Source: a virus
Taxonomy: Duplodnaviria; Caudoviricetes
Length of the DNA stretch: 64,000 bases
Virus record (IMG/VR): IMGVR_UViG_3300042988_001200
Reading direction: 5' to 3' (one strand)
Shown: in pieces, positions 1-43,874 of the stretch
Numbering within the stretch: position 1 is the stretch's first letter
Layout of the letters: each line of letters opens with the position of its first letter
Notes under the pieces: generated by a model
Database searches by the model: none
Told to the model about the DNA's origin: nothing
The model's input: the letters and a program-made list of their open reading frames with translations, nothing else
Program-made: the position numbers and the translations under genes

Positions 1-2
1 CC

Positions 3-3000
3 ATACCCTCTGGAGCTGACTCTAAGAATAAATCTATAGAGACTAACTACCTTCCAGAGGTACTAGCAGCAACTATAGGTATATCCTTTGGGGTAGGGGT
101 TGATGTAGGGATGTCTAAGTTATCTAAGAGTATGGCTAATAGGTCTAACACCTTTAGACATGTATTTGATAGAGATAGAACAGGGACTTTTAGTAAGAAC
201 TTCTCTCCTTTACTTTTAGGAGCTATAGCTGGAGCAGCTATATCAGATAACTCTATAGAAGATAAAGTACAGGGCACTTACCTAGGAGCTATGGGAGGAG
301 GATTTATAGGGTTCCTAGGTATGAAAGAAGAGATAGGTCCCATGCTTAATAAAAGATTAGGTCTAGGTCTAATGGGTGGGGCTCTAGGTCTATTAATAGG
401 TTCTAAGATAAGTGCTTCTAAAGAATCTAATAAAGTCACTTCTTATAGTATTAACAAAGGAGGAGAGTTAAGAGTTACTTATGATAACTTACAGGAGCTA
501 ATAAAAGAAGATAAAGCTACATTACCCTATGACTTCTATAAACATCCAGAGGCTAATAAGTTAGTAGAGGCTTATCTAATAAGTAATCAAAGGGGTTTTA
601 GAGGTATAGAAGATACAGGTAATTATGCAGATAGACATTTAATTTATCAGGTAAATAAAGATAAGCATGGATATAATACTCAAATAGGTAAGTTAAATAT
701 TAAGTTGGATATAACTGTTCCTAGTTATTCAAAAGAGGAGGGGTTTATTAGAGTTAGTCAAGAGGAGGTTAGAAAGAAGTATTCTATTAAGGATACTGAT
801 TCTATTGATAGAGCTAATGGTTTATTTAATGCTTATCAGATAGGTTTATTTATACCTTCTATGACCTTCTTTACTATAGGGACTATAGCAGAGGTTAAGA
901 ATAAACCCGGGGTTAAGAAGATAGTAGATTTTATTACTAACTATACAGATAAGGTTAAGTATCTATGGCCAGGAGAAAGAGCTATAGGTGAGGGTATACA
1001 GGAGATAGGGCAGGGGAGTACAGCCTTTCTTACTAGAGGCTATTCTAGAGGACTTAATAGAGGTATAAGGAAACTAGGGGAGGGCATTAAGTATAAAGTT
1101 ATAGGTGAATCCCTTAGTTTAGCTAAGAAGACATTTATCTATGCTATACCTGTATCTATAATCTCCTCTATGTTTGGAAATATAGACAGAGATAATAATC
1201 AGAATATAGAGGTCTATAGTAAAGAGGTGTCTCACTATGAAGCTATAGAGACTATAATGCCAAAGGCTACAGGTAATAAGAATATAGACTCTAGAGTTAA
1301 TCTTCAGACTTATATGGAGGAGGGTACAGCCTATAAGTTAGGGGATGTTATTATCTATGATTCGGGCACTATAGGCCAAGGATTAAGGAACTTTCTAGAG
1401 ACAGCTCCAGATAAATCTGTTAAAGCTCTTTTATATAAGCTAGGACATGAACAGGGGTTACAAGAGGTAATAAGTAGAAAGGCTGCTATAGGGGGTATAG
1501 GTATAAGTGGTGGGGACAATATAGATACCTTTTCCTTTTGGGATGAGATAGGAAAAGGATTTCAAGGAGAGGGGTCATGGGCACAGGTTTTTAGTTATCC
1601 TTTAAGAGCTAGTAAACATGAATCATTAGGAGCTGGTATAGCTTCAATAACCAGTCCTATAGTAGGAGGGTTGTATAACAATCTAGCTACTAACCTAGGC
1701 TTTGACCCTATATATAACTATAAGTTTGATAAAGATGTTTACTCTCCATTAGCTCATTCTCTAAATACTCTTACTTATGGTGGGTTGGGAGCAGCAATAG
1801 GTATAGGGATACATTCATATGTAGGGGGAGCAGGTAGGATACCTATGAGGGGTAAAGGGAGATTCGTAGGAGGGTTAATAGGAGGGCTTATAGGTGTAGC
1901 TCTAGGAGCCACTCAACCTACATATATAGACTCTGGATTCTATGATTCCTTAAGTAAACAAACACAGTTATCCTTTGGGGTATTTAAAGAGAGTAGTGCC
2001 CATAAAGCTCTTACTAAAAAAGATTCTTCTATAGGAGACTTAGTATTAGGGGCTGGACTAACTGCTGGACTACCAGCATTGGTAGGTGTGGCTCTACCAA
2101 TGAAAGGGAGAGTTAATAGAGGTATATTCCTAGGGATAGTTGGTTATACCACTGGTATGATTATATCTACTATGACAGGTAATGGTGTATTACCATCTAC
2201 CTTACCTATGTCTAGAAGGTTCTTAACCAATGAGTATGACCTTAGTAATCAAACCTTTAGTGTTTTACCAGGGGCTAGAAGGGGTAGTGGTAAACAACAG
2301 TTATCCCATATTCACTCTAAGACCTTATGGAGTAGGGAAGAGGTGTTTATATCTACAGGTAACTTAGATTCTGTATGGAAGAATATATATGGAGATGAGT
2401 CCCAGTTTAATATAGCTGTTAGGGTTAAAGGAGATACAGCTAAGAAGCTAATACCTCAATTAGATATTCTCCATGAGTTTATGAAGAAAGCTACTCCAGA
2501 TTCTAACCTTTCTTCTATAGTAGACCAGATACCTGATTTGATACTAGGGGGGCAAGGTTCTAAATCTAATGAGAAGATATTAGAGTTTATTCAATCAGCT
2601 AAAGGGGATTTATGGATATCTGCTCCATATCTAGCAGGATTAAGTAGAGATGTAAGACCTTTAGTAGAAGCTATTAAAGCTCTAGAGGCTAAGGGACAAA
2701 ATGTTCATCTTATAGCTCAGAACCCTAGAGGAGTGTCTGCTGGGGGCCAACCAGAGATGTCTATAGCTTTACAAAGAGAGTTATTAGCCTCTGGAATAGA
2801 TGTATACACCACTCCATATACTAATACCACCCTAACCCATGCTAAGTTATTAGCTGATGATGTAAAGACCTTTATAACTAGCCATAACCTATTCTCTGGT
2901 AACTCTATGAATAAGGTAGTAGAGGTAGGTATAGTTCTAGAGGGGGAGGAATATGCTAAGGCTACTAAACAGGCAGCCCTTAGATTTATGATAAAGAATA

Positions 3001-6000
3001 ACTTCTCTAATATTAAAGATAGTCCTCAATTCTCTCCAGAGGTATCTAAAGGATTTAGAGGGGTAGAAAGAGTAAAGGCCCTAGATATAAACCCTCAGTT
3101 TGCTGGTCTATTTGACCACCATTCAGGCTATCTCCTTCTTAACTCTCAAATGGGAGCATCCTTTTTCTACTCTAGAGCTCTATATAATAATCTCCAACGT
3201 CAAGCAGGTTTCTATCATAGGATTATAGATGAAGAGTTTGGTCCAGCTACTAGCTTATTTAAAATAGCTTATCTAGCTCACATAAATAAGAACACTAATA
3301 CTCCTTTAAGTACGGACTTATCGTATATCCCCTACTTTGTTAGTCAATATGATAAAGAGTTACAGACTCAGGGGGTAGGTGGGGTATTTAATGAGTTTGT
3401 ATCCATGAGGTTAGGGATGGGTAGGATGTATAAAGATGAGTATGGGTTTATAGGTTCTATAGCTGGTTCTATAGGGGCTATTCTAGATAGAACTTACCTA
3501 TTCTTCCAGGGAGGTAATATAGTGGGAGTTCATAGTAACTATGATGATGTAGATAACAAGGATATGAAGTATAAGAATAGAATGTTTCAAGAGGGGACCT
3601 TTGAAGCATTATTTACTTATCTAGCTGTTACTGCTGAATCTGCTGTAGCTTCTATAGCCTTATATATCTCATTAGGAGAACCTATTAATTTATTAATAGG
3701 AGAGGGTTTTAAGACATCTACAGAGAACTTTATTAGAGATGCTATTAAAGAAGAAGATTTCCTATCCCCTTCATCTAGACTTAAAAGAGCCTCTAACCTA
3801 GGGTTATATGACTCTCAGAGTTCTATACAAGCTAGACTATCTTTATTCTCTTCTATTACATCAGGGGAGGAGTATTTCTCTGTATCTAACTTTAAGTTAA
3901 CTCCTTATCATGTAAGCAACTTCTTCCTTAGAGAAAGGTCCTACCATCTACAAAGAGAGGTATTAGAACCCTTCTTACTAGAGAAGATAAACCCCTATGA
4001 GAGATTTGAAAGGTCTCAACAAGGTTTTAGAGCGGTTATTAATAAGTTTATAGAAGAGATAAGAACCCCTCCAGAGATTAGATTAGTAGCTTCAGAATCT
4101 AATCTAGAAACTATATCTAAACTAGTAAAACAACAGAAGGAGATAAGTGAACACTTAAGTTCTATAGGGGTTAATAAAAAGCTAGTAGATGTAATTATTT
4201 CAGAGGCTATAGGTTATAAGGAAGTAAGGAGTCAATTAGCCTCTGCTCTAAATCTAGATCCTAATGCCTCCTTAGATGAAATAGTTAACACTCTTAAAGG
4301 ATTTAACTCCTCCTCTTATTTAGATGGTGTACTTCCATCTATACAAACTAGAAATAAACTAGGTACTTATACTTATACAGAAGAGGGTAAGTTAATATCA
4401 GGAGTTAATTTAGAGATAGGTAATGTAGGTGTAGAGAGAGCTACTAGGATAGCAAGAGCTGTACAGGATATATTAGATGAGATACCTCTTAATCCTATAC
4501 ATTGGAAGGTCTTTAATAGTAATAGTGTGGCTTCTTTATTAGGAGTAAAGGAAGGGGGTTATCAGAGAGTGGTTAATAGAACTAACTTTACTGTTATATC
4601 TAAGGTAGCTACTATAGGGGATATCCTATCCTTTACAGATTTAACTCAAACTATGTCAGAGATTATGTTTGGTAAAGGAGGGATATCTGCCTTCATAGCC
4701 GCTAATGAAATATATAGTACAGAAATAGATAAGAGTATAGCTAGACATTCAGTAGATAGGATTCATACTATATGGAATATGACAGCAGGAGCTGCTTATA
4801 GAGCTTCCTCTAGAGCATGGTCTAGATATAAGTTAGTTATGGGATTACCCTTTCAGACTGGATTAATGAAGGCTAGTGAGTCATTAAAGGCTATGGAGTT
4901 TAATCTATTTAATAAGATAGGGGATGATGGATTAAGAGGTATAACCTGGGGAGATGATGCAGCTATTATCTCTAAGAGAATAGAGGATTTAACTAAAGAG
5001 GCTAAAGCTATATGGGAACAGTCTATACAGTCTGGTGAGTATGAACGTATATCTAAATATGTATCAAGTCTAGACCAAAGAGGGTTTATAGCTGAGTATA
5101 TAGCAGAACAATTACAACCTCATGTGGATCCATTAGCCAGAAGAATTAATTATATAGATGAATCAGTAGTATCTGCATTACATCAAGTAGATGAGGTTCA
5201 TCAGGCTCTATCTAATAACCCTAGAATGGCAGGTACTTTCCTTATGGAGATGCAAGAGCATTTAAGGAAAGAAACTATGGATATGTTTGTTACTGCTACT
5301 ATGAGTGGTTCTAATCTACAGAAACGTCTTATTAAACTTAGACCAGGGGACCCCTATGGTCTAGCCTCTAAGAAGAAGATGGCTTCTGTAGCTATGTCTT
5401 TATTAGGTATAGGAACTATATTCCTAGAACAACTCTTTACTAATACTCAGGGAGTAAGTATATTTACTCAGGTAGCCACAGCTCTTACATTTAGTAGATA
5501 TAGTGATAAAGAAAGTGGTGTATCTACTACATTTACTAATAGTGCTTTCCTACCTGGTTCTGGTGTATCTAGATATATAACTAATATAGGGGTTAATATA
5601 GGGGTCCTTGGTCTATCTCATATAATAGGTTCTTCTATATTAAGGGCTCAGGCTCTAGATTACACCTTTGATAATGACTTGTTATATAGACATATAGATG
5701 AGACTAGGGGAGCTTCTATTAACATAAGACTCAAACATCTAGATGCTAATGGAGATGAGGTAATAGAGCTTGTATCTGATTTAATAGATGATTGGAAGAC
5801 AGAGGGTGTAGAGTCTGGAGCTGACCTTATTAAGAGATTAAAGGGGTTAGTTAATGAGGGTTACTCCCTTCAATACGCGGTTACTAAAGGAGCTTCCACT
5901 AAGTACCTATCAGCTTTTGTAGAAGGTAAATATCTAAAGACTAGGGCTATTAGATTTGTAGGTAATACATGGTTTAACACTGCTGTAACATATGCTGTAT

Positions 6001-9000
6001 TAACAATGGCTATAAAAGGGGTTAAAGGGGGTATAGCTTCTACTCTTAATACTCTTAGAGATACTACTGGAACCATAGACCCTATTCTATTTGGAGGTAT
6101 AGGTATGGGTATTGGAGCTATAAAAGGGGGATTTAGAGGAGGTCTAGCTGGATTAGCTGTAGGGGTATTTAGCTCTTTTATAATGAATAGTCTAGGGGTT
6201 AAACTTCTTAATATTGGAGGTAAAGGAGTTAAAGTAGATAATTTAGAGACTGGTATTTTATCAGAACTATCTAACTTTAGACATTATGTTATGGCTAATC
6301 TAGGAGATGCTAGTAGAGCAGAACTAATGGCAGCTCTATGGTCTAGAAATATGGAGTCTGCCTATTCTATTCTCTATAAAGAGCCTTCTGGTACAACCTC
6401 TAATGTATTAGCTAAACAAATAACCTTTCCAGTATTCCAATTCTTCTTTACTAGTAAGGTAATAGGAGAACAAATAAATAATGAAGGGATAATAACCAAT
6501 CCTGGGCAGATATATTATAGTACAGGGATTCAGGGTCCTCCTATAAGTGGTATATCCTTCTCTTTTGGTCTTCCTTTTAAGATAGTAAAGGGAAAGGGGG
6601 TGTTTGGTACAGGTATTGCCTATAATGAAGAGGCTAATGTTATGGATTATATTCATAGTGTTAGCTACACCTCTTTATATCTAGGAGCTAATAGTCTAGC
6701 TCTTGGGACTTTATATAAAGTAAGTAACTCATTAAAGAGTAAATCAGCTATTAAGGAAGTAGGAGTTCTAGAAATGTTAGCTAAGATGTCTAAGGGTACT
6801 GCTCAATTAGTAGATGATGTTTTAATGACTCCCGTAGAGTTTGGATATAGAGTAGTAACCTCTCTAGCTACAGTGGATATTCGTAATGCTTTCTCTGTAG
6901 CTTATAAGGAACAAGATAAGGCTGCTCAATTAGGTACTTTAAGAAAACCTGTAGGGGGTATAGGAGCTCTAGCATTAAAGACTTTACTAGGGTTATATAT
7001 AGGGGGTCAGATAGGAAGTTTATATCAAGGTATAGTCTCTAAGGATACTATTGAGTATCAAGATAAAGTGTCTTCTGCTATAGATGTAGGGGCTCTTATA
7101 GGTGGGGGTCTAGCAGTTGGTCATCATTTTATATACCCTAAGATATATCCGCATATACAGGGTAAGTTATTTAAATACAACTCTTTACCTAGACTCCCTA
7201 GATATATACCAGCTCTAGCTATAGGAATAGGAGTAGGCACTCTTATGGCTAATAGTAGCTATGGATTAAGTAGTGGTATGGATTTCCATGAGGATGAACT
7301 TAGTTTCACTAAATATGCAATTACTGCTGTAGGTTATGGAACAGTATTAGGAACTGTAGCCTATAAGGTGGGTAATATAGGATTAACAATGGCAGATACT
7401 CTCCAGAAGTATGTAGATTTAGATAGTAGGTTAGAGATGGCTACTGTTAAGAGTACAACTGGTAGTGGGTTAAATAGGATGGTTAATAAGGCTAAGAAGT
7501 TCTACTACTCCTTATTTATAGATAATGCCCAGAAGGAAGCTCAGATGGTAGTAGATACTATTAAACATAACCAGCAGGAGATAGATGTTAGATATAACCA
7601 AGTAAAGGGGGTAAAGGGAGAAACAGTAGCAGATACTTTACCAGATGGTTATGCTCGTAAAGCTGTAGAACTTATAGATAATAATACAGATGTTAAGTTT
7701 CTTATTCACTCTAGTGAGAACAAAGAGATTCTTAATAATATTAATAAAGCTAAGGGTTCGTTCTTAGAGTCTAGATTTCATAAAAGGATATTTCCTCATA
7801 GAGTTAAGAGAACAGTAGGTGGGATGATAGCTCTTGGAATAGGATTATCTATATTAATGGGAGGTAATGAGGGTCAGTTCTATGATTATATAGAGGGAGC
7901 TTCTCCTGATCAATCTAAGGTTAGAGCTTCAATGGGTAAGATGCAGGCTGTATTCAGGTCTTCTCTAGCAGATATATTTAGGTTAATAACAGGTAGAGAT
8001 AAGAAGCTAATGAGTCCTAACCAACTTAATAATGTCTTTAGGTCAGCATCTGAGTATACAGGTATAGACTATAAAGTTCAATATGAGAAGTTATTAAAGA
8101 CTAGACCAGACCTTATTAATTCTATTAATAGTAGTATTAATGGTTTCTCTCAATTAATGGTATTTGATAGCCCTAATGCTTTTATATCTATAGGGGTTAT
8201 AGGAGGAGCATTTAGAAGAAGTGAGTATGGTAACATCTTAACTCCTTATATTCAGATTCAAGGTACAGGGGCTGATATAAGTACAGCTTCCTACCAAATG
8301 GTCTCTAGGTTCTATTTCAACTCTGTTATAGGTGGAGCTAATAATCTCTACTTTGATATTATGAATGCTGTAAAGATAAGTAATCAGGCATTAAAAGCTG
8401 GTCAACCTATGTCTAAATTTATATCTAGACAGATAGCTATTAACCTTCTTAGTGTTACAGCTAAACAACAACCTCTACAGAAGAGGAGGAAGGTCTCTAT
8501 GTTAAATGAAGAGACTATATCAGCCCTATCTTCTGATAGCCTTCTAGGAGCCATATTAAAACATAGGGTTAATATTACTAAGAACCTTAGCTATCAACCA
8601 CCCCTCTCTTTAGCTACTAGACTTTTATTAAATAATGTAGAGACTAATCCTCAAATAGCTAATCCTGTACTTCTATATTTACTTTCTCCTGATACTTTAA
8701 AGGAACTAGGTTTAAATATTGACTCTACTGTATTTGAGTTGTTATCTAAGGACCCCTTCTTCTTATTATCTAAGTCCTTTGTTATTAATGGTATTAACTC
8801 TTTTGCTCTTAATAGAGATGCTGTAGGTAATTACCTTAAAGGTATATTCTTCCCAGCTCAGATACCTATGGACCATCAAGATATATGGAAGGGTGGGGAT
8901 TCCTCCTATATCTCCTCCTATTATCAACATGAAGGAGACATAGGCTTTGCTATTATGCAGGCTAGTAGAACCAATCCTATCCTTCAATTATTAGGTAATT

Positions 9001-12000
9001 TAACTAGAGGAGTTCCTAGTTCTATTAAGGCCCTAGGAGCTGGAGTCATATTTGCTTCTTTATTAGGGGTTATAACCTTTAATCTAGGGAGAAAGGGTCT
9101 AGCTATAGAAGATAGAGCTTTATATAAGGAGATAAATGAATACTTTCTATCTGGATGGTTTAAACAAAGTAGAGAGGCAGAGGGGTTTGCATGGACCTTT
9201 AGAACCTCTTATCCCTTAGTAGGTAAGAAGGCTAGTCTAAAGGTTAGTGGAGAGAACTATTCTATTATCTATAAGGGGGCATACCAGTTTGTTATTAATA
9301 ATAGGATAGGTAATAGTGTAGGTATAAGTAGACTATTAGCTAAAGTACAGGAGGACCTGTATGGAATAATTACTGAATCCTTTGGGGCTGAATATGATGA
9401 TAAAGGGGTGATGACTAAGAAAGGTACTAATCTAGCAGACTGGTTTTTATCTAGTAATAAACAAAAGGAGTTAATCCAGGCCATTGAGTCTATAGATAAA
9501 CCTACTAAGGCTGATTCTTTAACCATCACTCATTTAGATGAGAATGGTAACTCTACGGATAAAGTCTTTACAGTAGAAACAGATAAACCTATACTAGATA
9601 ATCTTAATAACCTTAAACACTTTGAGGATTCATTAGGAGAATTAGATGAGGCTCAGTCCGCTCTATTAATTGAGTTTAGAAGTAAACAGACATCATTATA
9701 TGAGAAATCACTTAGACCCTCTACTTTAGTAAAGAATATAACAGATGTTTTTATGAAGGATATGGAAGATTTAGTAGATAGATACATAGACACCCTTATT
9801 GATAATAGGATAAGAGTTAATGAGAACTATCTATTAAATTTACCTCAATTAGATAATGAAACTAAATCTATAAGTGAAATATTTGATTCATATCAAGACC
9901 CTAATAGTAGATATAAGGGGATAGTTAAATATGTAGATTCCTTTGGAGATGTAACTAGATGGACAGAAGTATCCTTTATAACTATACTTAACCCTAATAT
10001 GGGACTACAGGATATGATGGAAATTAGTTATCTATTAAAGAATAAGGATACAAGACCCGAGGGTTTAACTAGATTAGTAGCTGGAATGAGTGCAGAACAA
10101 AAAGCTCTTTATACTGTAAATATAGATGGGAAGGCTACTGTAGATATCCATAAGGCCCTTAAAGAACAAGCTAGGGTGGCCATTAGTGATGCTGTGGAGC
10201 AGTATATATCCCAGTTCCCAGGGTCAACAGAGGAAGCAAAGAAGGCTCTTCTAAAGCATTTCCAAGGTACTAATCCTAGACTAGATAATATGACTATAGA
10301 AGTTCTAGGGGGTTTAATTGGATTAAAGAAGGATAAAGATGCTTCCTTCTTTTCTTTACTTAGACATCATTGGGCTGGATTAGGAACTACACCTACTGCT
10401 GATGTAACTAGAGGTCTCTCTACAACTATGAGACGTATGGTTAATTTTATTAGAGGTAAATCTTCTATACCAGATGCTGATGAGACAGGGGTAGTATCTA
10501 CTACTAAGACAGACCCTTATCTAATCGGTAAGTCTAATAATAGTCCTATACCTATGGGGATAATGACTGAATCAGGAGATGAGGTTATTAATAGAGTTCT
10601 AGTAGCTCAAGATATGGCTAGAGCTGATGTAGGATTTGGTAATAAGATAGGTAAGGGCTTTGGTATATTACTAGAGTTCTTAGGCTTTGGAGTAGATGTA
10701 GTAGAGGGTGTATCTACTATGGCCGCCTTCTCTAGATTAGGTCATGCTTATACATCTGAGACATATACAGAAGCTCAGATTATGAATGAGGCTATGTACG
10801 CTGGTACTACCCTAGTTAACTCTGCTTTATCTATACTTATTCTAGGAGCTGCTTCTTATGCAGCTAATGTATTTGCAGCAGGGACTTTAGCTGCTTTTAT
10901 AGCTCCATTGGTTATTATAGGTGTAGCTTCATTAGCAGGCTTTGCCTTTAATAAATGGGCTCCAGACTCTATTAAGAGTAAAGTTCATGGAGGGTTTAAT
11001 AAACTATATGAAGGGGCAGCTAAGATGCTTAAAGGTGGTGGAGATTTCTTTAGAGATAAGTTTGGTAAAAGAGCTGCATCAGCATTCTCTCATGCTGTAG
11101 GTGGCATAATGATGGGGGGAATGATAGTAGCATCTCTAGGTACTATCTCATCTATCAGTGCTTTAGTAGGGTTAGGTACAGCTATATCTATGCCTGCTCT
11201 AGGCAGCTTCTTATTAGCAGGGGCAGCTATAGGTGGTGTAACAGCAGCAGCTATAGGGTTTCTTAATCCTGGTTTATTAGATAAAACTCTAGGTCCTATG
11301 GTAGAGTCCTTAAGTAATGTAAGGATAGGTAATGTTCCTTTAGGACGTTTATTTGTTATAAGACCAGACCAGTGGTTATATGAGTTTATGAAGACAGGAG
11401 ACCCTATAACTGGAGTAGATAAATATGGAGCTCCTATTAAAGCTATAACTGCTAATGATTTAATTAAACAAGATTATGCTGCTCAATTACTAGCTGCTGA
11501 TGATTATACCGGCTCTAGTGCTGCTTCTTTATTTATCCACCAAGGGATGTATGGAACTTATAACACTAATAACTCAATAGATAAATATGGAAAGGTAAGT
11601 ATAATAAGGCCCCCTTCTATACTTTCTCCCTTTATTCAAAAGGAGATTAAATATAGAGGTCAACTCTTTAATCAATCTATTGTAGGTAGATATGTATGGA
11701 ATACTCTACTAGCTAATAGTTCTAACCAAAGGCATGTAAGAAAGGTTATGGAATCTCCTATACTTAAACCCTCTACTAATGCTCTTAAACAAATAAGTAT
11801 TGATGCAGCTAGACATGCACAAGTAAAACAGTTCCAATCTAAGTCTGTGACCTTATTATCTAAGTCCTTTACTATCAGAAATATACCTATACTAGCCTCT
11901 ATAATTGATAAGTTTAATGATGCTAAAGCTAAGTTACAGGCTAAGATAGCTTACGCTAAATTACCCATCAGGGCTATATTTAGATTAGATAATATAACAA

Positions 12001-12143
12001 GTTCTGATAGAGAATATAAAAAGGATTTAAGATTAGCTCCAATGGAAGTAGCAGCTATTGTAGATGGTAATATTATAAGGAAGGTTACAACCTCTGAATC
12101 AGAGATTAAAGAGGAAGTTTTTAATAATATTAATTACAGTTAA
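3..12143 (+). CDS. Giant tape-measure-like / ejected virion protein with embedded PLD (HKD) domain, 5'-partial, at least 4046 aa
   Basis: The frame is open from nt 3 (IPSGADSKNK...) through the tracked ATG at 111 to the stop at 12143. It has many Gly/Ala-rich hydrophobic segments. PLD motifs are HSKTLWSR..STGNL (His at nt 2313) and HAKLLADD..TSHNL..EVG (His at nt 2838). The tape-measure role is inferred from size and composition. Confidence 0.6.
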   Translation: MPSGADSKNKSIETNYLPEVLAATIGISFGVGVDVGMSKLSKSMANRSNTFRHVFDRDRTGTFSKNFSPLLLGAIAGAAISDNSIEDKVQGTYLGAMGGGFIGFLGMKEEIGPMLNKRLGLGLMGGALGLLIGSKISASKESNKVTSYSINKGGELRVTYDNLQELIKEDKATLPYDFYKHPEANKLVEAYLISNQRGFRGIEDTGNYADRHLIYQVNKDKHGYNTQIGKLNIKLDITVPSYSKEEGFIRVSQEEVRKKYSIKDTDSIDRANGLFNAYQIGLFIPSMTFFTIGTIAEVKNKPGVKKIVDFITNYTDKVKYLWPGERAIGEGIQEIGQGSTAFLTRGYSRGLNRGIRKLGEGIKYKVIGESLSLAKKTFIYAIPVSIISSMFGNIDRDNNQNIEVYSKEVSHYEAIETIMPKATGNKNIDSRVNLQTYMEEGTAYKLGDVIIYDSGTIGQGLRNFLETAPDKSVKALLYKLGHEQGLQEVISRKAAIGGIGISGGDNIDTFSFWDEIGKGFQGEGSWAQVFSYPLRASKHESLGAGIASITSPIVGGLYNNLATNLGFDPIYNYKFDKDVYSPLAHSLNTLTYGGLGAAIGIGIHSYVGGAGRIPMRGKGRFVGGLIGGLIGVALGATQPTYIDSGFYDSLSKQTQLSFGVFKESSAHKALTKKDSSIGDLVLGAGLTAGLPALVGVALPMKGRVNRGIFLGIVGYTTGMIISTMTGNGVLPSTLPMSRRFLTNEYDLSNQTFSVLPGARRGSGKQQLSHIHSKTLWSREEVFISTGNLDSVWKNIYGDESQFNIAVRVKGDTAKKLIPQLDILHEFMKKATPDSNLSSIVDQIPDLILGGQGSKSNEKILEFIQSAKGDLWISAPYLAGLSRDVRPLVEAIKALEAKGQNVHLIAQNPRGVSAGGQPEMSIALQRELLASGIDVYTTPYTNTTLTHAKLLADDVKTFITSHNLFSGNSMNKVVEVGIVLEGEEYAKATKQAALRFMIKNNFSNIKDSPQFSPEVSKGFRGVERVKALDINPQFAGLFDHHSGYLLLNSQMGASFFYSRALYNNLQRQAGFYHRIIDEEFGPATSLFKIAYLAHINKNTNTPLSTDLSYIPYFVSQYDKELQTQGVGGVFNEFVSMRLGMGRMYKDEYGFIGSIAGSIGAILDRTYLFFQGGNIVGVHSNYDDVDNKDMKYKNRMFQEGTFEALFTYLAVTAESAVASIALYISLGEPINLLIGEGFKTSTENFIRDAIKEEDFLSPSSRLKRASNLGLYDSQSSIQARLSLFSSITSGEEYFSVSNFKLTPYHVSNFFLRERSYHLQREVLEPFLLEKINPYERFERSQQGFRAVINKFIEEIRTPPEIRLVASESNLETISKLVKQQKEISEHLSSIGVNKKLVDVIISEAIGYKEVRSQLASALNLDPNASLDEIVNTLKGFNSSSYLDGVLPSIQTRNKLGTYTYTEEGKLISGVNLEIGNVGVERATRIARAVQDILDEIPLNPIHWKVFNSNSVASLLGVKEGGYQRVVNRTNFTVISKVATIGDILSFTDLTQTMSEIMFGKGGISAFIAANEIYSTEIDKSIARHSVDRIHTIWNMTAGAAYRASSRAWSRYKLVMGLPFQTGLMKASESLKAMEFNLFNKIGDDGLRGITWGDDAAIISKRIEDLTKEAKAIWEQSIQSGEYERISKYVSSLDQRGFIAEYIAEQLQPHVDPLARRINYIDESVVSALHQVDEVHQALSNNPRMAGTFLMEMQEHLRKETMDMFVTATMSGSNLQKRLIKLRPGDPYGLASKKKMASVAMSLLGIGTIFLEQLFTNTQGVSIFTQVATALTFSRYSDKESGVSTTFTNSAFLPGSGVSRYITNIGVNIGVLGLSHIIGSSILRAQALDYTFDNDLLYRHIDETRGASINIRLKHLDANGDEVIELVSDLIDDWKTEGVESGADLIKRLKGLVNEGYSLQYAVTKGASTKYLSAFVEGKYLKTRAIRFVGNTWFNTAVTYAVLTMAIKGVKGGIASTLNTLRDTTGTIDPILFGGIGMGIGAIKGGFRGGLAGLAVGVFSSFIMNSLGVKLLNIGGKGVKVDNLETGILSELSNFRHYVMANLGDASRAELMAALWSRNMESAYSILYKEPSGTTSNVLAKQITFPVFQFFFTSKVIGEQINNEGIITNPGQIYYSTGIQGPPISGISFSFGLPFKIVKGKGVFGTGIAYNEEANVMDYIHSVSYTSLYLGANSLALGTLYKVSNSLKSKSAIKEVGVLEMLAKMSKGTAQLVDDVLMTPVEFGYRVVTSLATVDIRNAFSVAYKEQDKAAQLGTLRKPVGGIGALALKTLLGLYIGGQIGSLYQGIVSKDTIEYQDKVSSAIDVGALIGGGLAVGHHFIYPKIYPHIQGKLFKYNSLPRLPRYIPALAIGIGVGTLMANSSYGLSSGMDFHEDELSFTKYAITAVGYGTVLGTVAYKVGNIGLTMADTLQKYVDLDSRLEMATVKSTTGSGLNRMVNKAKKFYYSLFIDNAQKEAQMVVDTIKHNQQEIDVRYNQVKGVKGETVADTLPDGYARKAVELIDNNTDVKFLIHSSENKEILNNINKAKGSFLESRFHKRIFPHRVKRTVGGMIALGIGLSILMGGNEGQFYDYIEGASPDQSKVRASMGKMQAVFRSSLADIFRLITGRDKKLMSPNQLNNVFRSASEYTGIDYKVQYEKLLKTRPDLINSINSSINGFSQLMVFDSPNAFISIGVIGGAFRRSEYGNILTPYIQIQGTGADISTASYQMVSRFYFNSVIGGANNLYFDIMNAVKISNQALKAGQPMSKFISRQIAINLLSVTAKQQPLQKRRKVSMLNEETISALSSDSLLGAILKHRVNITKNLSYQPPLSLATRLLLNNVETNPQIANPVLLYLLSPDTLKELGLNIDSTVFELLSKDPFFLLSKSFVINGINSFALNRDAVGNYLKGIFFPAQIPMDHQDIWKGGDSSYISSYYQHEGDIGFAIMQASRTNPILQLLGNLTRGVPSSIKALGAGVIFASLLGVITFNLGRKGLAIEDRALYKEINEYFLSGWFKQSREAEGFAWTFRTSYPLVGKKASLKVSGENYSIIYKGAYQFVINNRIGNSVGISRLLAKVQEDLYGIITESFGAEYDDKGVMTKKGTNLADWFLSSNKQKELIQAIESIDKPTKADSLTITHLDENGNSTDKVFTVETDKPILDNLNNLKHFEDSLGELDEAQSALLIEFRSKQTSLYEKSLRPSTLVKNITDVFMKDMEDLVDRYIDTLIDNRIRVNENYLLNLPQLDNETKSISEIFDSYQDPNSRYKGIVKYVDSFGDVTRWTEVSFITILNPNMGLQDMMEISYLLKNKDTRPEGLTRLVAGMSAEQKALYTVNIDGKATVDIHKALKEQARVAISDAVEQYISQFPGSTEEAKKALLKHFQGTNPRLDNMTIEVLGGLIGLKKDKDASFFSLLRHHWAGLGTTPTADVTRGLSTTMRRMVNFIRGKSSIPDADETGVVSTTKTDPYLIGKSNNSPIPMGIMTESGDEVINRVLVAQDMARADVGFGNKIGKGFGILLEFLGFGVDVVEGVSTMAAFSRLGHAYTSETYTEAQIMNEAMYAGTTLVNSALSILILGAASYAANVFAAGTLAAFIAPLVIIGVASLAGFAFNKWAPDSIKSKVHGGFNKLYEGAAKMLKGGGDFFRDKFGKRAASAFSHAVGGIMMGGMIVASLGTISSISALVGLGTAISMPALGSFLLAGAAIGGVTAAAIGFLNPGLLDKTLGPMVESLSNVRIGNVPLGRLFVIRPDQWLYEFMKTGDPITGVDKYGAPIKAITANDLIKQDYAAQLLAADDYTGSSAASLFIHQGMYGTYNTNNSIDKYGKVSIIRPPSILSPFIQKEIKYRGQLFNQSIVGRYVWNTLLANSSNQRHVRKVMESPILKPSTNALKQISIDAARHAQVKQFQSKSVTLLSKSFTIRNIPILASIIDKFNDAKAKLQAKIAYAKLPIRAIFRLDNITSSDREYKKDLRLAPMEVAAIVDGNIIRKVTTSESEIKEEVFNNINYS

Positions 12144-12148
12144 TTTAT

Positions 12149-12841
12149 ATGAATGAAGAATTAAAAACTCTTTTAATTGGTTTAAATAAATCAATAGAGA
12201 ATATAGAAGAGGCTATAGAGTTTAAGAATAGTAAAGAAAGAATCATAGAAGAACTAGAGGTTATGAGAGGTTTAGTAGAGGTAATAGATAATAATAATTC
12301 CTCTATTGTCCCTTTATCTGTATCTAATAAAGTAGACTCTTATAATCTAGGAGCTATGGTAGTTAATATGGCTAATAGTGGATTTACTCATATGGATATA
12401 GCTGAAGAATGCTCTAAGGAATGTGGTGTAGATTTTAATATTAGAGAAGTGAGTGATTGGTTAAATAACTATGTCTCTCTAAGTAGTAGTAAAAAAAGTA
12501 AGGTTCTTAGAGGTTCTGTATTTGATTCTAGAAATAGATTAGAGGAACTATCTTTACTTCTTTATTCTCTATTAGATACTATTAATGAAAAGGATGATAG
12601 TTTATTTAAATATAATAAGATTACTAAAGAAGAGGTCTACCTACAAGTAATAAAAGAGATAAGACAGCTTACTAAACAAGCAACAGACCTAATAGAAAAA
12701 ATAGATGATAGGTCTAGGATACAAGAGTTTCAGAATACAGTTATTGAGTGTTTACAAAGAGAGGCTCCATTAGTAGCTTCTAAGGTTATTAAGAGTCTAA
12801 GAGAACAACAGACTATACAACAACTAGCAGGTCTTAAATAA
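12149..12841 (+). CDS. Hypothetical protein, possible HTH plus helical/coiled-coil region
   Basis: 230-aa ORF tightly packed after the giant gene. FTHMDIAEECSKECGVDFNIREVSDWL looks HTH-like. Confidence 0.4.
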   Translation: MNEELKTLLIGLNKSIENIEEAIEFKNSKERIIEELEVMRGLVEVIDNNNSSIVPLSVSNKVDSYNLGAMVVNMANSGFTHMDIAEECSKECGVDFNIREVSDWLNNYVSLSSSKKSKVLRGSVFDSRNRLEELSLLLYSLLDTINEKDDSLFKYNKITKEEVYLQVIKEIRQLTKQATDLIEKIDDRSRIQEFQNTVIECLQREAPLVASKVIKSLREQQTIQQLAGLK

Positions 12842-12857
12842 ATTAATATACTTAAAT

Positions 12858-13217
12858 ATGTCAAAAGCTCATAAAGGAAGAGAAACTGTTTATGTATATC
12901 TAGCTCATAATTTTCCTTGGAAAGAAAGTCTAGTTCTAGATGGTGAAGTTTATGTATATGAAGAGGTTCTAGAAGCTATATCTAAATTAAAAAGGAATGA
13001 CCCCCTCTCTCATAAAATACTGGCTTATAGATGGTTGACTACTAGAACTAGAGCAGATATATCTGCTGGCTTATTTATGGATAGTTCCACTCTTAAGAGA
13101 ATGTGGGACTATGCTATTGATATATTAGTTAATTATCTTAGACATAAACATAATAGAGAAGGGAATATAGCCCCTTTACTAGAACCTATTGACCTTATAT
13201 ATAAGATTAAGAGCTAA
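12858..13217 (+). CDS. Putative HTH transcription regulator (sigma region 4 / ArpU-like)
   Basis: RTRADISAGLFMDSSTLKRMWDYAIDIL resembles a sigma-4-type HTH. Confidence 0.45.
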   Translation: MSKAHKGRETVYVYLAHNFPWKESLVLDGEVYVYEEVLEAISKLKRNDPLSHKILAYRWLTTRTRADISAGLFMDSSTLKRMWDYAIDILVNYLRHKHNREGNIAPLLEPIDLIYKIKS

Positions 13218-33851: not shown

Positions 33852-33894
33852 TTATATCTAGTATAAGTAAATTAAATTATAAGAAAGTAAACAT

Positions 33895-34611
33895 ATGCCT
33901 AGACCTTTAAAGGTATCAGAAAAAGGGGCGCCCTTAACCTGTGCTGAGCATGATGAAAACATAAATAGGTTATTAGATAGAAGTAACCATACTGGCACTC
34001 AATCAGCTAGCACTATACATGATTTAGCTGTATATCTAGCTAACTCCAGTTCCTTATCTGGATTAACCACTCAATTAACTAATCTACAAAGTTTAGTCTC
34101 TTCTTTACAGGATGATGTACTAGCTCCTGGGGGTCATGTAAATTCTTTAATATCTCAATTACAATCAGCTTACACCTCGGCTGATAATCTTATTAATAAT
34201 AGACTTAATAGTTATGAAGCTAGAATCACAGGTCTAGAGACAGGTCATAGTAATCAACAAGGATTAATAGATAATCTTAATCAAAGAGTTAATACTCTAA
34301 CTACTGACACAGCCACTAATACTCAGGCTATTGATGCTTTGGATACTCAAGTATCTACTCTATCTTCCTTATTGGGAGGTAATGATGTCTCTGGAATGAT
34401 AGGGGATATTTCAGCTATTATGGATATACTTCAACCTGTTATAGATGGAGACTCATTTATAGTTCCATCCCCTCCTAATAATAATGATGGTCTTATATTT
34501 GGATGGGACTCTACCTCCTCTACTCCTATATGGAGATTCCCTGATAATATTAATGGAGGAGATTTAGTAGACCCAACAGGTACTGTTAGATTAAACCTAA
34601 GTTCTAATTAA
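33895..34611 (+). CDS. Tail-associated coiled-coil protein
   Basis: KGAPLTCAEHDEN and RSNHTGTQ motifs are typical of phage fibre N-termini. Long coiled coil. Confidence 0.6.
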   Translation: MPRPLKVSEKGAPLTCAEHDENINRLLDRSNHTGTQSASTIHDLAVYLANSSSLSGLTTQLTNLQSLVSSLQDDVLAPGGHVNSLISQLQSAYTSADNLINNRLNSYEARITGLETGHSNQQGLIDNLNQRVNTLTTDTATNTQAIDALDTQVSTLSSLLGGNDVSGMIGDISAIMDILQPVIDGDSFIVPSPPNNNDGLIFGWDSTSSTPIWRFPDNINGGDLVDPTGTVRLNLSSN

Positions 34612-34632
34612 CACTCTTTTATATAAATATAT

Positions 34633-37131
34633 ATGCCAGTTTATTCTTATCAAATGAGACATGGACTACAGGGTGATATCCCTGGAATTCCAGCTCTAGA
34701 CGCTTATGAACCTCTATTCACTACTGATAGTAAACAGCTATGGATTGGTCTACCAGGCGGTAATACGCCTCCTTACACAGGAGCTATAGTTCCTAGATTC
34801 TATGATGCAGACCTTAATACTTCTAGTGGTACAACTGCAGGACCTACTGACCATCTAGGTAGACCAGCTACTACTAAATGGGTACAAGACCTTCTATCAG
34901 CTACCTCTACTACACCCCCAGCAGGTATAGCCTGGAGGACTCAACCTAACACCTTTAGTGATGATAATACATTCCAGAAGTGGCCTACTATAACAGATAC
35001 TCTATTACCTGTTACTGACTCATCTACTAAGGTTCCTACTACTCAATGGGTTAAGAATGCTATTACAAGTGCTATAGGTACTGTTGGTAATGTAGCTTAT
35101 AGAGACCAGAATAATACCTTCTCTTTAATTAATACCTTTAACTCCACAGCTCTATTTAATGGAGCTTCTACTTTTAATGGTCCTTTAGTCTCTACTTCTA
35201 CTGTTGACCTAACTAATGCTATATGGACTAAGGTTAAGACTATACCCACTAGCACTATCCCAGCAGAGGATGCAGCTTCTACTTTATATGTATGGAACTC
35301 CCATACTGATGATTCTAAACTTAAGAAGGCGACTACTCCACCAGCTAGTAGTAATGATACTCATATAGCTACTACTGAATGGGTAAGGGCTAATGTATCA
35401 GGTTCTAACCTATTAACCTCTAATAACACTTGGACAGGTACTAATACTTATGACAATCTAGTAACCTTTAACCAAGTTCCTTTATCAGTAGAACCTCCTT
35501 TATCAGATAATTCTAATAAAGTACCTACTACCTCCTGGGTAAGAAATACTATTAACTCTTTAGCTACTGGAGGGGCCCCTGTTCTAACTAAGAGTTTGAT
35601 TAGTAATGAATATAACACCCTTCTATGGAGTTCTGGAACTGTATCTATAGGTGGAGTTAATTATCCAGTAACTGCTGGTAGTTATGCCTTTACAGCAGCT
35701 TCTACAGCTACTACTACTGGTACTACTTATTATGTAAAAGCTAGTCTATCCGGGGGTACAGTCTCAGTACCAGCTCCTACTACCTCTCCTACAATATCAG
35801 CTACAGAGGTGTTACTAGGCTCTTTAACCTTAGTAGATGTAACAGCTTCTCCCCCAGTAGCAGGTGGTCCAGTAAGGGAGATTAATGGAGTTATTAATAG
35901 TCCCCCTAACTATGCTAGAAGAGATTTAGATAATGTATTTACAGCAGGTAATACATTTAATGGTACTAATGTACTAGCAGGACCTACTACAGCTTCTTAT
36001 TCTATCCCTTCAACTAGTAATGATACAACTGTTCCTACTACAGCCTGGGTTAAATCAGCTCTAAGTAATGTAGGTAACTCCTTCTTCCAATTAGATGGTA
36101 GTAGTAATTTAGTTCCTATCCCTGGTTCATTCACTGGTTGTGTTGATTTAAGTAGTGTATGTGTGAAAGCTAGGACCCCTATTGACCCCTCATCTAGTGA
36201 TGATTCAGTAGCTACTACAGCCTGGGTACAAGCTGTATTATCTAATCAACCAGTTAATCCAGTAGTATCTCTAGTAGGAACTCCCTCTAGTACCAGCTTC
36301 CAAGTTACATGGACTTCTGGTTCTGTTGCTCTACCTTCTGGACTTAATTGTGCTGGAGCTAATTGTGATGCTGGAGCTGGTCCCGGAGGTACAGATTTAT
36401 GTAATGTTAGTCCCCCTACTTCACCGGTTACAGTAGCTATGCCTGCTCCTGGTACATCCATTAGAAGGTATTTCTATGTAGCTTATGGAGATTGTCAGGT
36501 TCTTAATGATACAGTGGCACCAGACCCAGATACAGTAGGTAAGGTTATAGCTATAGCTGATGTTAATAATACTAGTCCCTCTTCTGTAGTAATCACTCCT
36601 ATACAATCAGGTGGATGGGCTCCTATAGATAGTCCTTTCTTTACTGGCAATCCCCAGGCTCCTACTCCAGCTACAGGAGATTGTGATAACTCTATAGCTA
36701 CCACTGAGTTTGTATGTGAGATGGTTAATAATCTATTAACAGCTCCTTGCTCTGGAACTATAACATATCCTGATATTATTCAAGTAGGTAATCCCTCTTT
36801 ACTTATCAATGTAACTAGTGGACAGGTTCCTAAACCCGGAACTAGTGCGGGTAACTGTGTTGTAGTACCATTATCAGCTCCAGTAGCTGTAGTAGCCAAC
36901 TCCACTGAGTATTGTTGGATAAGATTCTCTGATTGTAAATTAGTAGCCTCTACTCAACCTCCAGCTTCTAATATTGGTTTCCTATTAGCAACTGTAGTTA
37001 CTAATGCTACTAATATTGTTTCTATAACTAAAGCAGCTAATACAGTAGTGGAAACTAAAATATCTACTTGTTATAAGGTAGGATTTGGTGGGAGACTTAT
37101 ATATGTTCCAGGTCCTAATTGTTGTGTTTAA
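34633..37131 (+). CDS. Tail fibre protein
   Basis: N-terminal QMRHG..EPLFTTDSKQLWIG anchor, about eight (A/P)TTxW/FV repeats, SPFFTGNPQAPTP repeat, Thr/Ser/Pro-rich. Confidence 0.8.
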   Translation: MPVYSYQMRHGLQGDIPGIPALDAYEPLFTTDSKQLWIGLPGGNTPPYTGAIVPRFYDADLNTSSGTTAGPTDHLGRPATTKWVQDLLSATSTTPPAGIAWRTQPNTFSDDNTFQKWPTITDTLLPVTDSSTKVPTTQWVKNAITSAIGTVGNVAYRDQNNTFSLINTFNSTALFNGASTFNGPLVSTSTVDLTNAIWTKVKTIPTSTIPAEDAASTLYVWNSHTDDSKLKKATTPPASSNDTHIATTEWVRANVSGSNLLTSNNTWTGTNTYDNLVTFNQVPLSVEPPLSDNSNKVPTTSWVRNTINSLATGGAPVLTKSLISNEYNTLLWSSGTVSIGGVNYPVTAGSYAFTAASTATTTGTTYYVKASLSGGTVSVPAPTTSPTISATEVLLGSLTLVDVTASPPVAGGPVREINGVINSPPNYARRDLDNVFTAGNTFNGTNVLAGPTTASYSIPSTSNDTTVPTTAWVKSALSNVGNSFFQLDGSSNLVPIPGSFTGCVDLSSVCVKARTPIDPSSSDDSVATTAWVQAVLSNQPVNPVVSLVGTPSSTSFQVTWTSGSVALPSGLNCAGANCDAGAGPGGTDLCNVSPPTSPVTVAMPAPGTSIRRYFYVAYGDCQVLNDTVAPDPDTVGKVIAIADVNNTSPSSVVITPIQSGGWAPIDSPFFTGNPQAPTPATGDCDNSIATTEFVCEMVNNLLTAPCSGTITYPDIIQVGNPSLLINVTSGQVPKPGTSAGNCVVVPLSAPVAVVANSTEYCWIRFSDCKLVASTQPPASNIGFLLATVVTNATNIVSITKAANTVVETKISTCYKVGFGGRLIYVPGPNCCV

Positions 37132-42857: not shown

Positions 42858-43184
42858 TTACTTAAGTAAGAACTTAAGTATTCCTATAATAAGTTCTTTT
42901 TGAGTATTGAACTCTCCTTTTTCTATTAGTTTAGAGAGGGTAGGGTTATTAATAGAATAACTCTTTCTATCTCTATTAGGTATTATGGTGATAGAAAGAG
43001 TTAGATTCTTATTAGGGTTATGCCATTGGTATATAACTCTACTTGTATTAGAGTCTGTAAAACTAGTATCTGGTAATAAATATTCAGATAGAAGTTTAAT
43101 GAACTCTTGACAATCAATCATACTATCCGTCATATCAAGAGTTTCATTCTCTAATTCAGATAGTCTAGGAGATAAGTTATACAT
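42858..43184 (-). CDS. Hypothetical protein
   Basis: 108-aa ORF. Confidence 0.5.
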   Translation of the reverse strand: MYNLSPRLSELENETLDMTDSMIDCQEFIKLLSEYLLPDTSFTDSNTSRVIYQWHNPNKNLTLSITIIPNRDRKSYSINNPTLSKLIEKGEFNTQKELIIGILKFLLK

Positions 43185-43188
43185 TAGA

Positions 43189-43872
43189 TTAATACTTTAA
43201 AGTTAGGTCTATAACTTTATTATATGGTTCTGAACTAGCTTGTTGAGAGATATTAAAAGAGAAACTACCCACTAATTCATACTTCTTTATTAGATTTATT
43301 AAGGACTCAGGAGTGGGAACTGGTTCATTATCTACTAGAATATCCACTTTATCTCCTCCGAATAGACTTCTAACTATAATGCTAGAACCTTTATATTCAT
43401 CACACAGTAATCCTCCTAATATAAAATCTAGAGGGCTAGAGTATATAGAACAGATAGAACTCTCTAGAATTAATGGGTATAAGTTACTAGTATTAGATAT
43501 TTGATAGAAGGGTAGAAGCCATTTAGGTGGTTCAAAGAAGACATCTTCTGCTATGAATATCTTATATTCAGGGTATTCAACATTTAAAATAGACATAGCT
43601 GAATCAATATCTACAGGTTCATCATAGAGATTTTCAATAGGAATTTTATTAGATAAAAGGTGTCCGAACGCTGGTAACTCATTGAATATAGATTTAGTTC
43701 CCTCTTTAATTAACCTATATTGAGCTACTAATTGAGAGTTGTAGTAGCTCAATAAATACGTTTCATAGGTAATGTGATTGTTCCTAGGTACTAGTTTTAT
43801 ATAGTATCTCCAAGTAGTTAAAGAGCTAAACAGAAGACTGGTTACTTGAACTATCTCTTTAGGTATATTCAT
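43189..43872 (-). CDS. Hypothetical protein
   Basis: 227-aa ORF immediately downstream of the VWA gene. Confidence 0.6.
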   Translation of the reverse strand: MNIPKEIVQVTSLLFSSLTTWRYYIKLVPRNNHITYETYLLSYYNSQLVAQYRLIKEGTKSIFNELPAFGHLLSNKIPIENLYDEPVDIDSAMSILNVEYPEYKIFIAEDVFFEPPKWLLPFYQISNTSNLYPLILESSICSIYSSPLDFILGGLLCDEYKGSSIIVRSLFGGDKVDILVDNEPVPTPESLINLIKKYELVGSFSFNISQQASSEPYNKVIDLTLKY

Positions 43873-43874
43873 TT

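Follow-up and report, generated by a model that had tools for sequence, protein, structure and literature searches.

We analysed the gene that opens a 64,000-nt stretch (hereafter, the window) of the IMG/VR virus record IMGVR_UViG_3300042988_001200, which belongs to the Caudoviricetes. The window spans bases 83823-147822 of an IMG/VR virus contig of 171,917 bp, whose completeness is put at 89%. The source phage is an uncultured relative of Microcystis phage Ma-LMM01 and Microcoleus phage My-WqHQDG; it is Ma-LMM01-like with a contractile tail, and is probably a cyanophage. A first-pass annotation, made from the letters of the window, had described a giant virion-type protein with a phospholipase D (PLD) domain, encoded by an open reading frame (ORF) at 3..12143 (+) that was open at the window edge, and had predicted that the protein was longer than could be tracked. 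The whole contig confirmed this: the frame continued for 1,032 nt more upstream, and the true start was found as an ATG at genome position 82793, 3 nt past the stop of the preceding gene. The full gene covers genome 82793-95965 (window -1029..12143), and its 4,390-aa product is identical to the database protein P0002, which was found on contigs of up to 204 kb. Residues are numbered below either in the window frame or in P0002, where the P0002 residue is the window-frame residue + 344 (H771 = H1115, K773 = K1117, H946 = H1290). The possibility that the ORF is an artefact was rejected, as full-length homologues exist at 27-78% identity. A megablast search of the giant gene against GenBank phages gave zero matches. 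The G+C content of the gene was 0.34-0.37, against mostly 0.25-0.33 elsewhere in the window (one other high stretch reached 0.38 at 34-38 kb), and this raised value fits the 9% Gly and 7% Ala in P0002. The features of the giant gene are as follows, in window coordinates.

1..12143 (+): window portion of the giant gene, based on the open frame, the whole-contig extension and identity to P0002
1353..1520 (+): 'YDS...G.G..FL...D.S.K..Y' module (P0002 ~795-850), kept even in the most distant relatives P0011, P0013 and P0021
1737..2213 (+): about four glycine-zipper hydrophobic segments just before the first HKD motif (P0002 ~923-1081), seen as uncharged runs with low AlphaFold2 confidence
2295..2507 (+): C-terminal part of PLD lobe 1 with HKD motif 1 (H771, K773, G786, N787, Q801, N803; nt 2313-2411), with invariant columns and a predicted local distance difference test score (pLDDT) of 80-95
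2535..3047 (+): complete PLD lobe 2 with HKD motif 2 (H946, K948, S960, N962, S968, E974; nt 2838-2924), matched by PLDc_2 (859-989) and by Nuc 1byr
3138..4214 (+): conserved block 1 (P0002 1390-1748), shared with Ma-LMM01 gp120 468-805 by blastp and block hidden Markov models (HMMs), the best-conserved part of the family
6396..8666 (+): conserved block 2 (P0002 2476-3232), shared with gp120 1230-1972 by blastp and block HMMs
10671..11699 (+): conserved block 3 (P0002 3901-4243), shared with gp120 2434-2751 by blastp, holding the strongest hydrophobic cluster

Both PLD half-sites were found where the first-pass annotation had placed them. The first is IHSKTLWSREEVFISTGNL (H771, K773, N787; nt 2313-2363), a variant HSK..STGNL without the Asp, and the second is THAKLLADDVKTFITSHNL...NKVVEVG (H946, K948, S960, N962, E974; nt 2838-2924). 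The WISAPYL strand reported between them was read there as DLWISAPYL. Written as motifs, the residues are H771-x-K773...S-T-G786-N787 and H946-x-K948...T-S960-H-N962...E974, which deviate from HxK(x)4D(x)6G(S/T)xN in that motif 1 has no Asp, the Asp of motif 2 is not conserved, and the spacing is one residue shorter.

An HMM search of the region matched Pfam PF13091 (PLDc_2) with 39.1 bits against a cut-off of 27 (E 8e-10). The match covers window-frame residues 859-989, i.e. the second half of the domain, and the same family was found in 9 of 10 full-length homologues (best E 2e-17). When the 286-aa PLD region was searched with HMMER against 1.84 billion representative proteins, only 16 proteins were obtained, 13 of them 3,653-7,770 aa long. 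In an alignment of 16 sequences (A2), which reached down to 22% identity, H771, K773, G786, N787, Q801, N803, Y876, G898, H946, K948, S960 and S968 were invariant, and N962 and E974 were kept in at least 90% of the sequences. The invariance or near-invariance of these columns indicated that both catalytic His/Lys/Asn sets are under selection. Searched against sequences in the PDB, the A2 profile retrieved phosphatidylserine synthase, PLD3/PLD4, Nuc, the poxvirus nicking-joining enzyme and NucT (E 2e-7 to 4e-5).

A two-lobed PLD fold was predicted when A2 was modelled with AlphaFold2 (pLDDT 78, predicted template modelling score 0.77; residues 55-305 mostly at pLDDT 80-95). Foldseek searches with this model returned two-lobed PLDs at E 4e-11 (7e0m, PssA) and cardiolipin synthase (Cls) models at E 1e-12. 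In VIA-align, where Z values within 1 count as ties, the best match was PLD3/PLD4 (Z 19.9, 266 residues aligned, root-mean-square deviation (rmsd) 3.5), followed by PLD 7e0m (Z 19.0) and by PssA and vaccinia F13 (both Z 18.3), and each of these alignments spanned both HKD motifs. Nuc 1byr aligned to the second lobe alone (model residues 131-301, Z 15.3, rmsd 2.0). Among reviewed proteins (Swiss-Prot), the top 30 structural matches were all membrane-anchored cardiolipin synthases, matched from their first HKD motif to the C-terminus; E. coli ClsA 223-463, a range that we take to start at the first HKD motif of ClsA, corresponds to model residues 56-291. The identity of the domain to its structural PLD matches was 12-20%. 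Since one rigid superposition covers both half-sites, they appear, indirectly and in the predicted model, to be juxtaposed as in true PLDs: a single 266-residue superposition takes in both HKD motifs of PLD3/PLD4 and ClsA. The profile match, the conservation and the predicted fold thus show that the PLD domain is genuine, as a single-chain PLD-superfamily domain with two HxK motifs.

The subfamily of the domain was less clear-cut. Every curated PLD subfamily in NCBIfam scored far below its cut-off: the DISARM nuclease-like DrmC at 41.7 bits against 133, cardiolipin synthase at 20.5-31.6 against 290, and NucT at 24 or less against 211. By sequence, the domain lies outside every curated PLD subfamily tested (Cls, NucT/Nuc, DrmC). 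Its sequence seems to lean slightly to nuclease-like PLD members and its modelled structure slightly to lipid enzymes, so that a lipid and a nucleic acid are about equally plausible as the substrate. It shares the two-lobed fold and paired HxK..N motifs with ClsA, PssA (3hsi/8yr5), PLD 7e0m, PLD3/PLD4, vaccinia F13 and Nuc 1byr, and would share membrane tethering with Cls and PLD3/PLD4, judging from its predicted hydrophobic segments. It differs from all of them in its motifs, one residue shorter and with no Asp in motif 1, in its apparently truncated or split lobe 1, and in being embedded in 4,390 aa.

The absence of the Asp from motif 1, its variability in motif 2, the seemingly truncated lobe 1 and a relative, Ma-LMM01 gp120, without the domain would suit a non-catalytic PLD fold that is retained for structure or binding. 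We consider this very unlikely. All residues known to take part in PLD catalysis (the His, Lys and Asn of each motif, together with Ser and Glu in motif 2) are kept down to 22% identity, and the Asp of the HKD motif is structural rather than catalytic in the PLD superfamily. The domain, near the N-terminal quarter of the giant, therefore looks like an active phosphodiesterase of the PLD superfamily, formed from a single chain whose two HxK..N half-sites share one predicted two-lobed fold.

In the AlphaFold2 model, lobe 2 is complete, whereas lobe 1 consists only of the HKD hairpin and a helix-strand-helix. The 55 residues before the modelled lobe 1 were left unmodelled; they are the end of the glycine-zipper hydrophobic run, in which P0002 923-955 and 1051-1081 are uncharged and 1020-1044 is a hydrophobic window. 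Upstream of this run lies the YDS module, in which Y796, S816 and Y822 are invariant. In hhalign, the module aligned weakly (E 0.007, probability 5.6%) to helix 1, strand 2 and helix 2 of lobe 2, and the lobe-1 motif aligned to the lobe-2 motif at E 5.7e-4; a profile search of the PDB with the YDS module retrieved nothing relevant. As a hypothesis, the YDS module could be the missing N-terminal beta-alpha-beta-alpha of PLD lobe 1. Lobe 1 would then be split by an insertion of about 250 aa into which the membrane-inserting segments fall, and these segments might hold the active site against the bilayer.

The many GxxxG-type hydrophobic segments noted in the first reading were compared with 500 shuffles of the protein. 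GxxxG motifs (55 observed, 35.3 +/- 5.4 in shuffles) and the longest uncharged run (69 aa, against 32 +/- 7.5) exceeded chance, with none of the 500 shuffles reaching either value, and there were 9 uncharged runs of at least 25 aa where 3.3 were expected. Hydrophobic 19-mers, in contrast, were not above chance (13 against a shuffle mean of 10), and we rejected the count of hydrophobic windows as meaningful on its own. The observation thus holds for GxxxG motifs and long uncharged runs and fails for the number of hydrophobic 19-mers. The strongest cluster, at P0002 3941-4103 in block 3, contains uncharged stretches of 54 and 69 aa (nt 10791-11279), and a C-terminal hydrophobic cluster lies at the same relative place in P0007, P0010, P0015 and gp120.

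The giant is a member of the PHROG 29513 (Ma-LMM01 gp120) family by sequence: this PHROG matched it at E 3.2e-43, and blastp gave three collinear blocks to gp120. P0002 can be aligned over its whole length with seven to ten full-length homologues, and conservation peaks at P0002 1100-1700 (the PLD domain and the block that follows), 1800-2000, 2450-2550 and 3050-3200. The nearest GenBank protein is WOL31340 of Microcoleus phage My-WqHQDG (4,151 aa), with 31% identity over the PLD domain and block 1. Fukuivirus homologues are Ma-LMM01 gp120, MaMV-DC ORF119 and MaMV-DH01 ORF143 (2,898-2,899 aa). Together with WOL31340 they are true homologues in the same position behind the large terminase (TerL), but the Fukuivirus proteins differ in lacking the PLD domain and its upstream module. 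More distant members share the N-terminal module and the PLD domain with P0002 and carry cell-wall hydrolases near their C-termini: SLT, VanY, S11/beta-lactamase-like and M23 domains in P0021 (7,770 aa), M23 in P0013 and in P0014, and lysozyme in P0011. IMG names such hydrolase-bearing members 'muramidase' and 'MepM'. In P0021, a sub-threshold kinase-like match (Pkinase, 28.1 bits against 31.7) was also seen at ~5346-5476, upstream of the four cell-wall hydrolase domains. The PLD-bearing family occurs only in large phages of fresh water that are relatives of bloom-controlling cyanophages.

Outside the PLD domain, the giant had zero matches to Pfam or PHROG families of known function. An AlphaFold2 model of P0002:1376-2010, which covers block 1, was all-alpha and poor (pLDDT 58); Foldseek against BFVD found nothing at E <= 0.001 with it, and a wide VIA search gave generic helical bundles only (best Z 6.7). 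Look-alikes of P0002:1380-2230 in the ESM Atlas were unnamed viral clusters with a best score of 0.84, which was uninformative. A search for related loci in IMG/VR with P0002:1100-1760, P0021:300-900 and P0013:880-1400 returned nothing.

We examined the genomic context of the giant gene with PHROG and Pfam scans. They showed a contractile-tailed phage with one long plus-strand structural operon, ordered as follows.

Genome 23703 onwards (+): portal, then protease and major head protein
Genome 33882-36983 (+): sheath, then a tube-like protein and a 668-aa protein
Next (+): 878-aa hub with gp5-type OB, VanY and beta-lactamase-like domains, then an M23 peptidase
End of the operon (+): large unassigned and fibre-like proteins, the large terminase (79331-81100), three small ORFs, the giant and two small ORFs
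Window 12149..13217 (+): the two small ORFs that close the operon (230 and 119 aa), members of PHROG families of unknown function, with the same layout in relatives

Past the small ORFs the strand switches and replication genes follow (PD-(D/E)XK exonuclease, primase, Dda-like helicase, clamp loader, polymerase). The giant is thus the last large gene of the portal-to-terminase operon, on the same strand, and is close-coupled in translation to the gene before it. The order of TerL, one to three small ORFs, the giant and a strand switch is kept in Ma-LMM01 and on the 190-kb contig of P0012 and the 191-kb contig of P0010; on the contig of P0006, the giant gene does not adjoin TerL.

In the source phage, the VanY/beta-lactamase-like and M23 domains belong to separate proteins of the tail module. 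The gp5/VgrG-type OB, VanY and beta-lactamase-like domains are on the hub (genome 39936-42572 (+), 878 aa) and M23 is on a 406-aa protein (43045-44265 (+)); the tail module therefore holds three cell-wall enzymes. Because the hydrolase types that are separate here are fused to the giant in relatives, we suggest that the giant may act at the contact between tail tip and wall.

The first-pass annotation had set the protein beside tape measure proteins (TMPs). On a tape measure reading, the giant would be the tail tape measure, or a tail-lumen protein fused to one, with the PLD domain as cargo, and would resemble T5 Pb2 or P23-45 gp96, in which a ruler is combined with membrane segments and an enzyme. 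Some observations are compatible with this. For the remainder of the protein, a long and mainly alpha-helical structure is predicted. The relatives have hydrophobic clusters followed by a C-terminal M23 or lysozyme domain, an architecture characteristic of many TMPs (PMC10770324). No protein of the tail module convincingly matched a TMP profile, and P23-45 gp96 is a giant tape measure that carries an enzyme, membrane segments and a metallopeptidase. BFVD matches of the low-confidence helical model of P0002:1376-2010 were also full of TMPs, although these were non-significant (E >= 8e-3, TM score ~0.1).

The gene, however, lies behind TerL, about 40 kb from the sheath, tube and hub, and the giant had no match to Pfam or PHROG TMP profiles. 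No G/GT-type -1 frameshift pair was found before it: the ORFs upstream of it overlap by 20 nt in a +1 relation, with no slippery heptamer in the right phase, and a -1-compatible pair precedes the portal instead. Length, too, may not fit a ruler role. At 1.5 A per residue, the 2,899-aa MaMV-DH01 homologue would span ~435 nm, whereas a 260-nm tail was reported for this phage (PMC9927357), and 2,898-4,791 aa would give 435-720 nm. The tail module itself offers syntenic proteins of plausible ruler size, a 1,041-aa ORF and Ma-LMM01 gp098 (1,177 aa), as candidates for the real tape measures, and the phage encodes a second giant whose hydrophobic C-terminal segments make it a competitor for the role. 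From the gene position, the missing chaperone pair, the missing profile match and the apparent length mismatch, we judged the tape measure reading doubtful: the giant is probably not the tape measure, and this explanation is unlikely.

The pair of ORFs before the portal (genome 22726-23696 (+); 146 and 147 aa) overlaps by 37 codons, with the second frame, open from 23055, in the -1 frame. It contains AAAAAAA at 23064 and CCCAAAG at 23143, and it is tail-chaperone-like, yet no tape measure gene comes next; the pair faces the start of the gene of the second giant. The 1,041-aa protein of the tail module (genome 45909-49034 (+)) is unassigned, relatively helix-favouring and has one hydrophobic segment. 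Its syntenic counterpart gp098 (L021:25544-29077) carries at least 6 tandem copies of an acidic 'DDEELKQEIIELIEG' repeat, and no similarity was detectable between the two.

The second giant is a 5,372-aa, RNA-polymerase-like protein encoded at genome 6355-22473 (-) (window -77467..-61349; L013:355-16473). It has the motifs H402-x-K...GSFN and H745-x-K...GSSN, a DFDGD loop at 4173, and Gly/Ala-rich hydrophobic segments at ~5094-5273. Pfam found nothing in it, PLD included, and blastp between the two giants gave nothing significant. When the PLD profile was aligned to its N-terminus with hhalign, only the HKD motif aligned (E 0.14). With these weak or null results, the two PLD modules are not demonstrably close paralogues by sequence. 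Both giants nevertheless have two HKD motifs and Gly/Ala-rich hydrophobic segments. A PLD module with glycine-zipper segments might be a portable membrane-crossing, or DNA-end-holding, device by which this phage lineage brings very large proteins into the host. Rather than act as a conventional lytic enzyme, the PLD would work at the entry site, where it would either remodel the sole phospholipid in cyanobacterial membranes or become linked through a phospho-histidine to the genome end near the packaging machinery. We regard such a device as doubtful, and as less probable than the tape measure.

The explanation that we prefer, although tentatively and as something short of probable, is that the giant is a PLD-bearing, envelope-spanning delivery protein that is ejected from the virion. 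It is based on the genomic context and on the domain fusions in relatives. The giant would be synthesised along with the structural proteins and enter the virion, where a place in or under the head, beside the portal, is more likely than a ruler's place in the tail. At infection it would be expelled unfolded through the tail, and its glycine-zipper hairpins would insert in the cytoplasmic membrane, which would place the PLD active site at the membrane surface. The PLD could then cut or transfer a phosphodiester, either in a phosphatidylglycerol-type lipid, opening or remodelling the entry site, or in nucleic acid. Because sister lineages add cell-wall hydrolases to the same scaffold, the family as a whole may be one of delivery proteins that breach the envelope. 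Precedents for giant proteins that carry enzymes out of the virion are the N4 virion RNA polymerase (PMC13434306) and P23-45 gp96, with its transmembrane and metallopeptidase parts (PMC10770324). The part of the first-pass claim that called the protein virion-type and ejected is accordingly supported by indirect evidence: the position behind TerL, the Gly-rich hydrophobic clusters, and the hydrolases in distant members. A literature search for virion proteomics of Ma-LMM01-like phages gave nothing pertinent, and the MaMV-DH01 study included none.

Several points weigh against an ejected delivery protein. About 85% of the protein has no recognisable fold, and the known homologues are all annotated 'hypothetical protein'. 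Ma-LMM01 gp120 has no PLD domain by blastp and block HMMs, so the enzyme is not essential to the role of the scaffold. The giant itself has no cell-wall hydrolase recognised by Pfam or PHROG, and its homology to the hydrolase-bearing P0011, P0013 and P0021 is detectable only over P0002 ~600-1700; P0012 and P0014 are at 17% identity. To these are added the apparent incompleteness of lobe 1 and the chance-level number of hydrophobic 19-mers described above. Cyanobacterial membranes are mostly glycolipid, with phosphatidylglycerol as the sole major phospholipid, which narrows a lipase role.

We also considered that the giant is absent from the virion and acts, membrane-anchored, inside the infected cell, in phosphatidylglycerol or thylakoid remodelling, host nucleic acid degradation, superinfection exclusion, or as a membrane assembly scaffold. 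The nearest reviewed structural analogues, cardiolipin synthases, are resident membrane enzymes, and the best NCBIfam match, far below threshold, is DrmC; in the P0006 lineage the gene is away from TerL. Expression timing is no structural marker either, as almost all Ma-LMM01 genes, terminase included, fall in one 'middle' expression class (PMC5780444). On the other hand, the gene lies, in four lineages, at the end of the structural operon, and a size of 3.6-7.8 thousand aa is what one expects of an ejected or tail protein rather than a metabolic enzyme. The fused peptidoglycan hydrolases make the best sense if the protein reaches the wall from outside during entry, although a role in lysis is also possible. 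A function inside the cell is therefore rather improbable.

Taking the ejected delivery protein as the working explanation, we compared the giant with known systems. Thermus phage P23-45 gp96 (5,002 aa) combines a tape measure with a virion RNA polymerase, and resembles the giant and its relatives in its N-terminal enzyme, transmembrane segments and metallopeptidase (M23 in the relatives) (PMC10770324). It is reported to be a siphovirus protein whose length sets an extremely long tail (PMC10770324), and it is an example of a giant protein that can bring enzymes into the host cell. Here the tail is contractile, the gene is outside the tail module and the enzyme is a PLD, and no sequence similarity to gp96 was detected. 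Polyvalent proteins of phages and conjugative elements are multi-domain proteins of great size, proposed to enter together with the invading DNA (PMC5512222). P0021 (PLD, kinase-like, SLT, VanY and M23), in which at least five domains were recognised, fits this concept, whereas the giant has one recognisable domain only; Iyer et al. 2017 (PMC5512222) make no mention of PLD, HKD, lipase or transmembrane segments.

A likeness at the superfamily level is found in bacteria. The type VI secretion effectors of the Tle5 family (PldA/PldB of Pseudomonas aeruginosa) are PLD-family phospholipases delivered to a target cell by a contractile, phage-tail-like machine; they differ from the giant in being soluble proteins of ~700-1,100 aa that are loaded on VgrG. 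To our knowledge, the enzymes carried by phage tape measures and ejection proteins are cell-wall hydrolases and, rarely, RNA polymerases. The earlier remark that a PLD is not a usual tape-measure cargo was upheld, in that our literature search found no PLD in a tape measure or ejection protein. A conserved PLD-type phosphodiesterase inside a phage protein of ~4,000 residues is not described in the literature searched, and the giant would be a further case of an enzyme-carrying giant delivery protein, with PLD as a new cargo. Should its target at entry be membrane lipid, the PLD would parallel, in a phage, the type VI PLD effectors and provide a new route across the cytoplasmic membrane; should it be a nuclease, it would serve as a new kind of injected weapon against host or rival DNA. 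With 16 representatives among the 1.84 billion proteins, the family is small, and its giant genes were all left 'hypothetical'; the present analysis gives a testable domain map for gp120 of the cultured phage Ma-LMM01.

Three further observations were made on neighbouring genes. The 119-aa ORF that closes the operon (window 12858-13217 (+), PHROG 29168) has a C-terminal half that by eye resembles sigma region 4 or a LuxR-type helix-turn-helix. In the P0012 relative (L016:5678-9388), a 1,236-aa probable terminase contains an intein and LAGLIDADG homing-endonuclease domains, and a 131-aa ORF precedes the giant. An 832-aa protein in the window (34633-37131 (+)) gave short matches to many tail-fibre PHROGs over residues 660-732, and it sits in a second plus-strand block of large genes at 34.6-41.7 kb, where the G+C content of 0.38 is above that of the surroundings.

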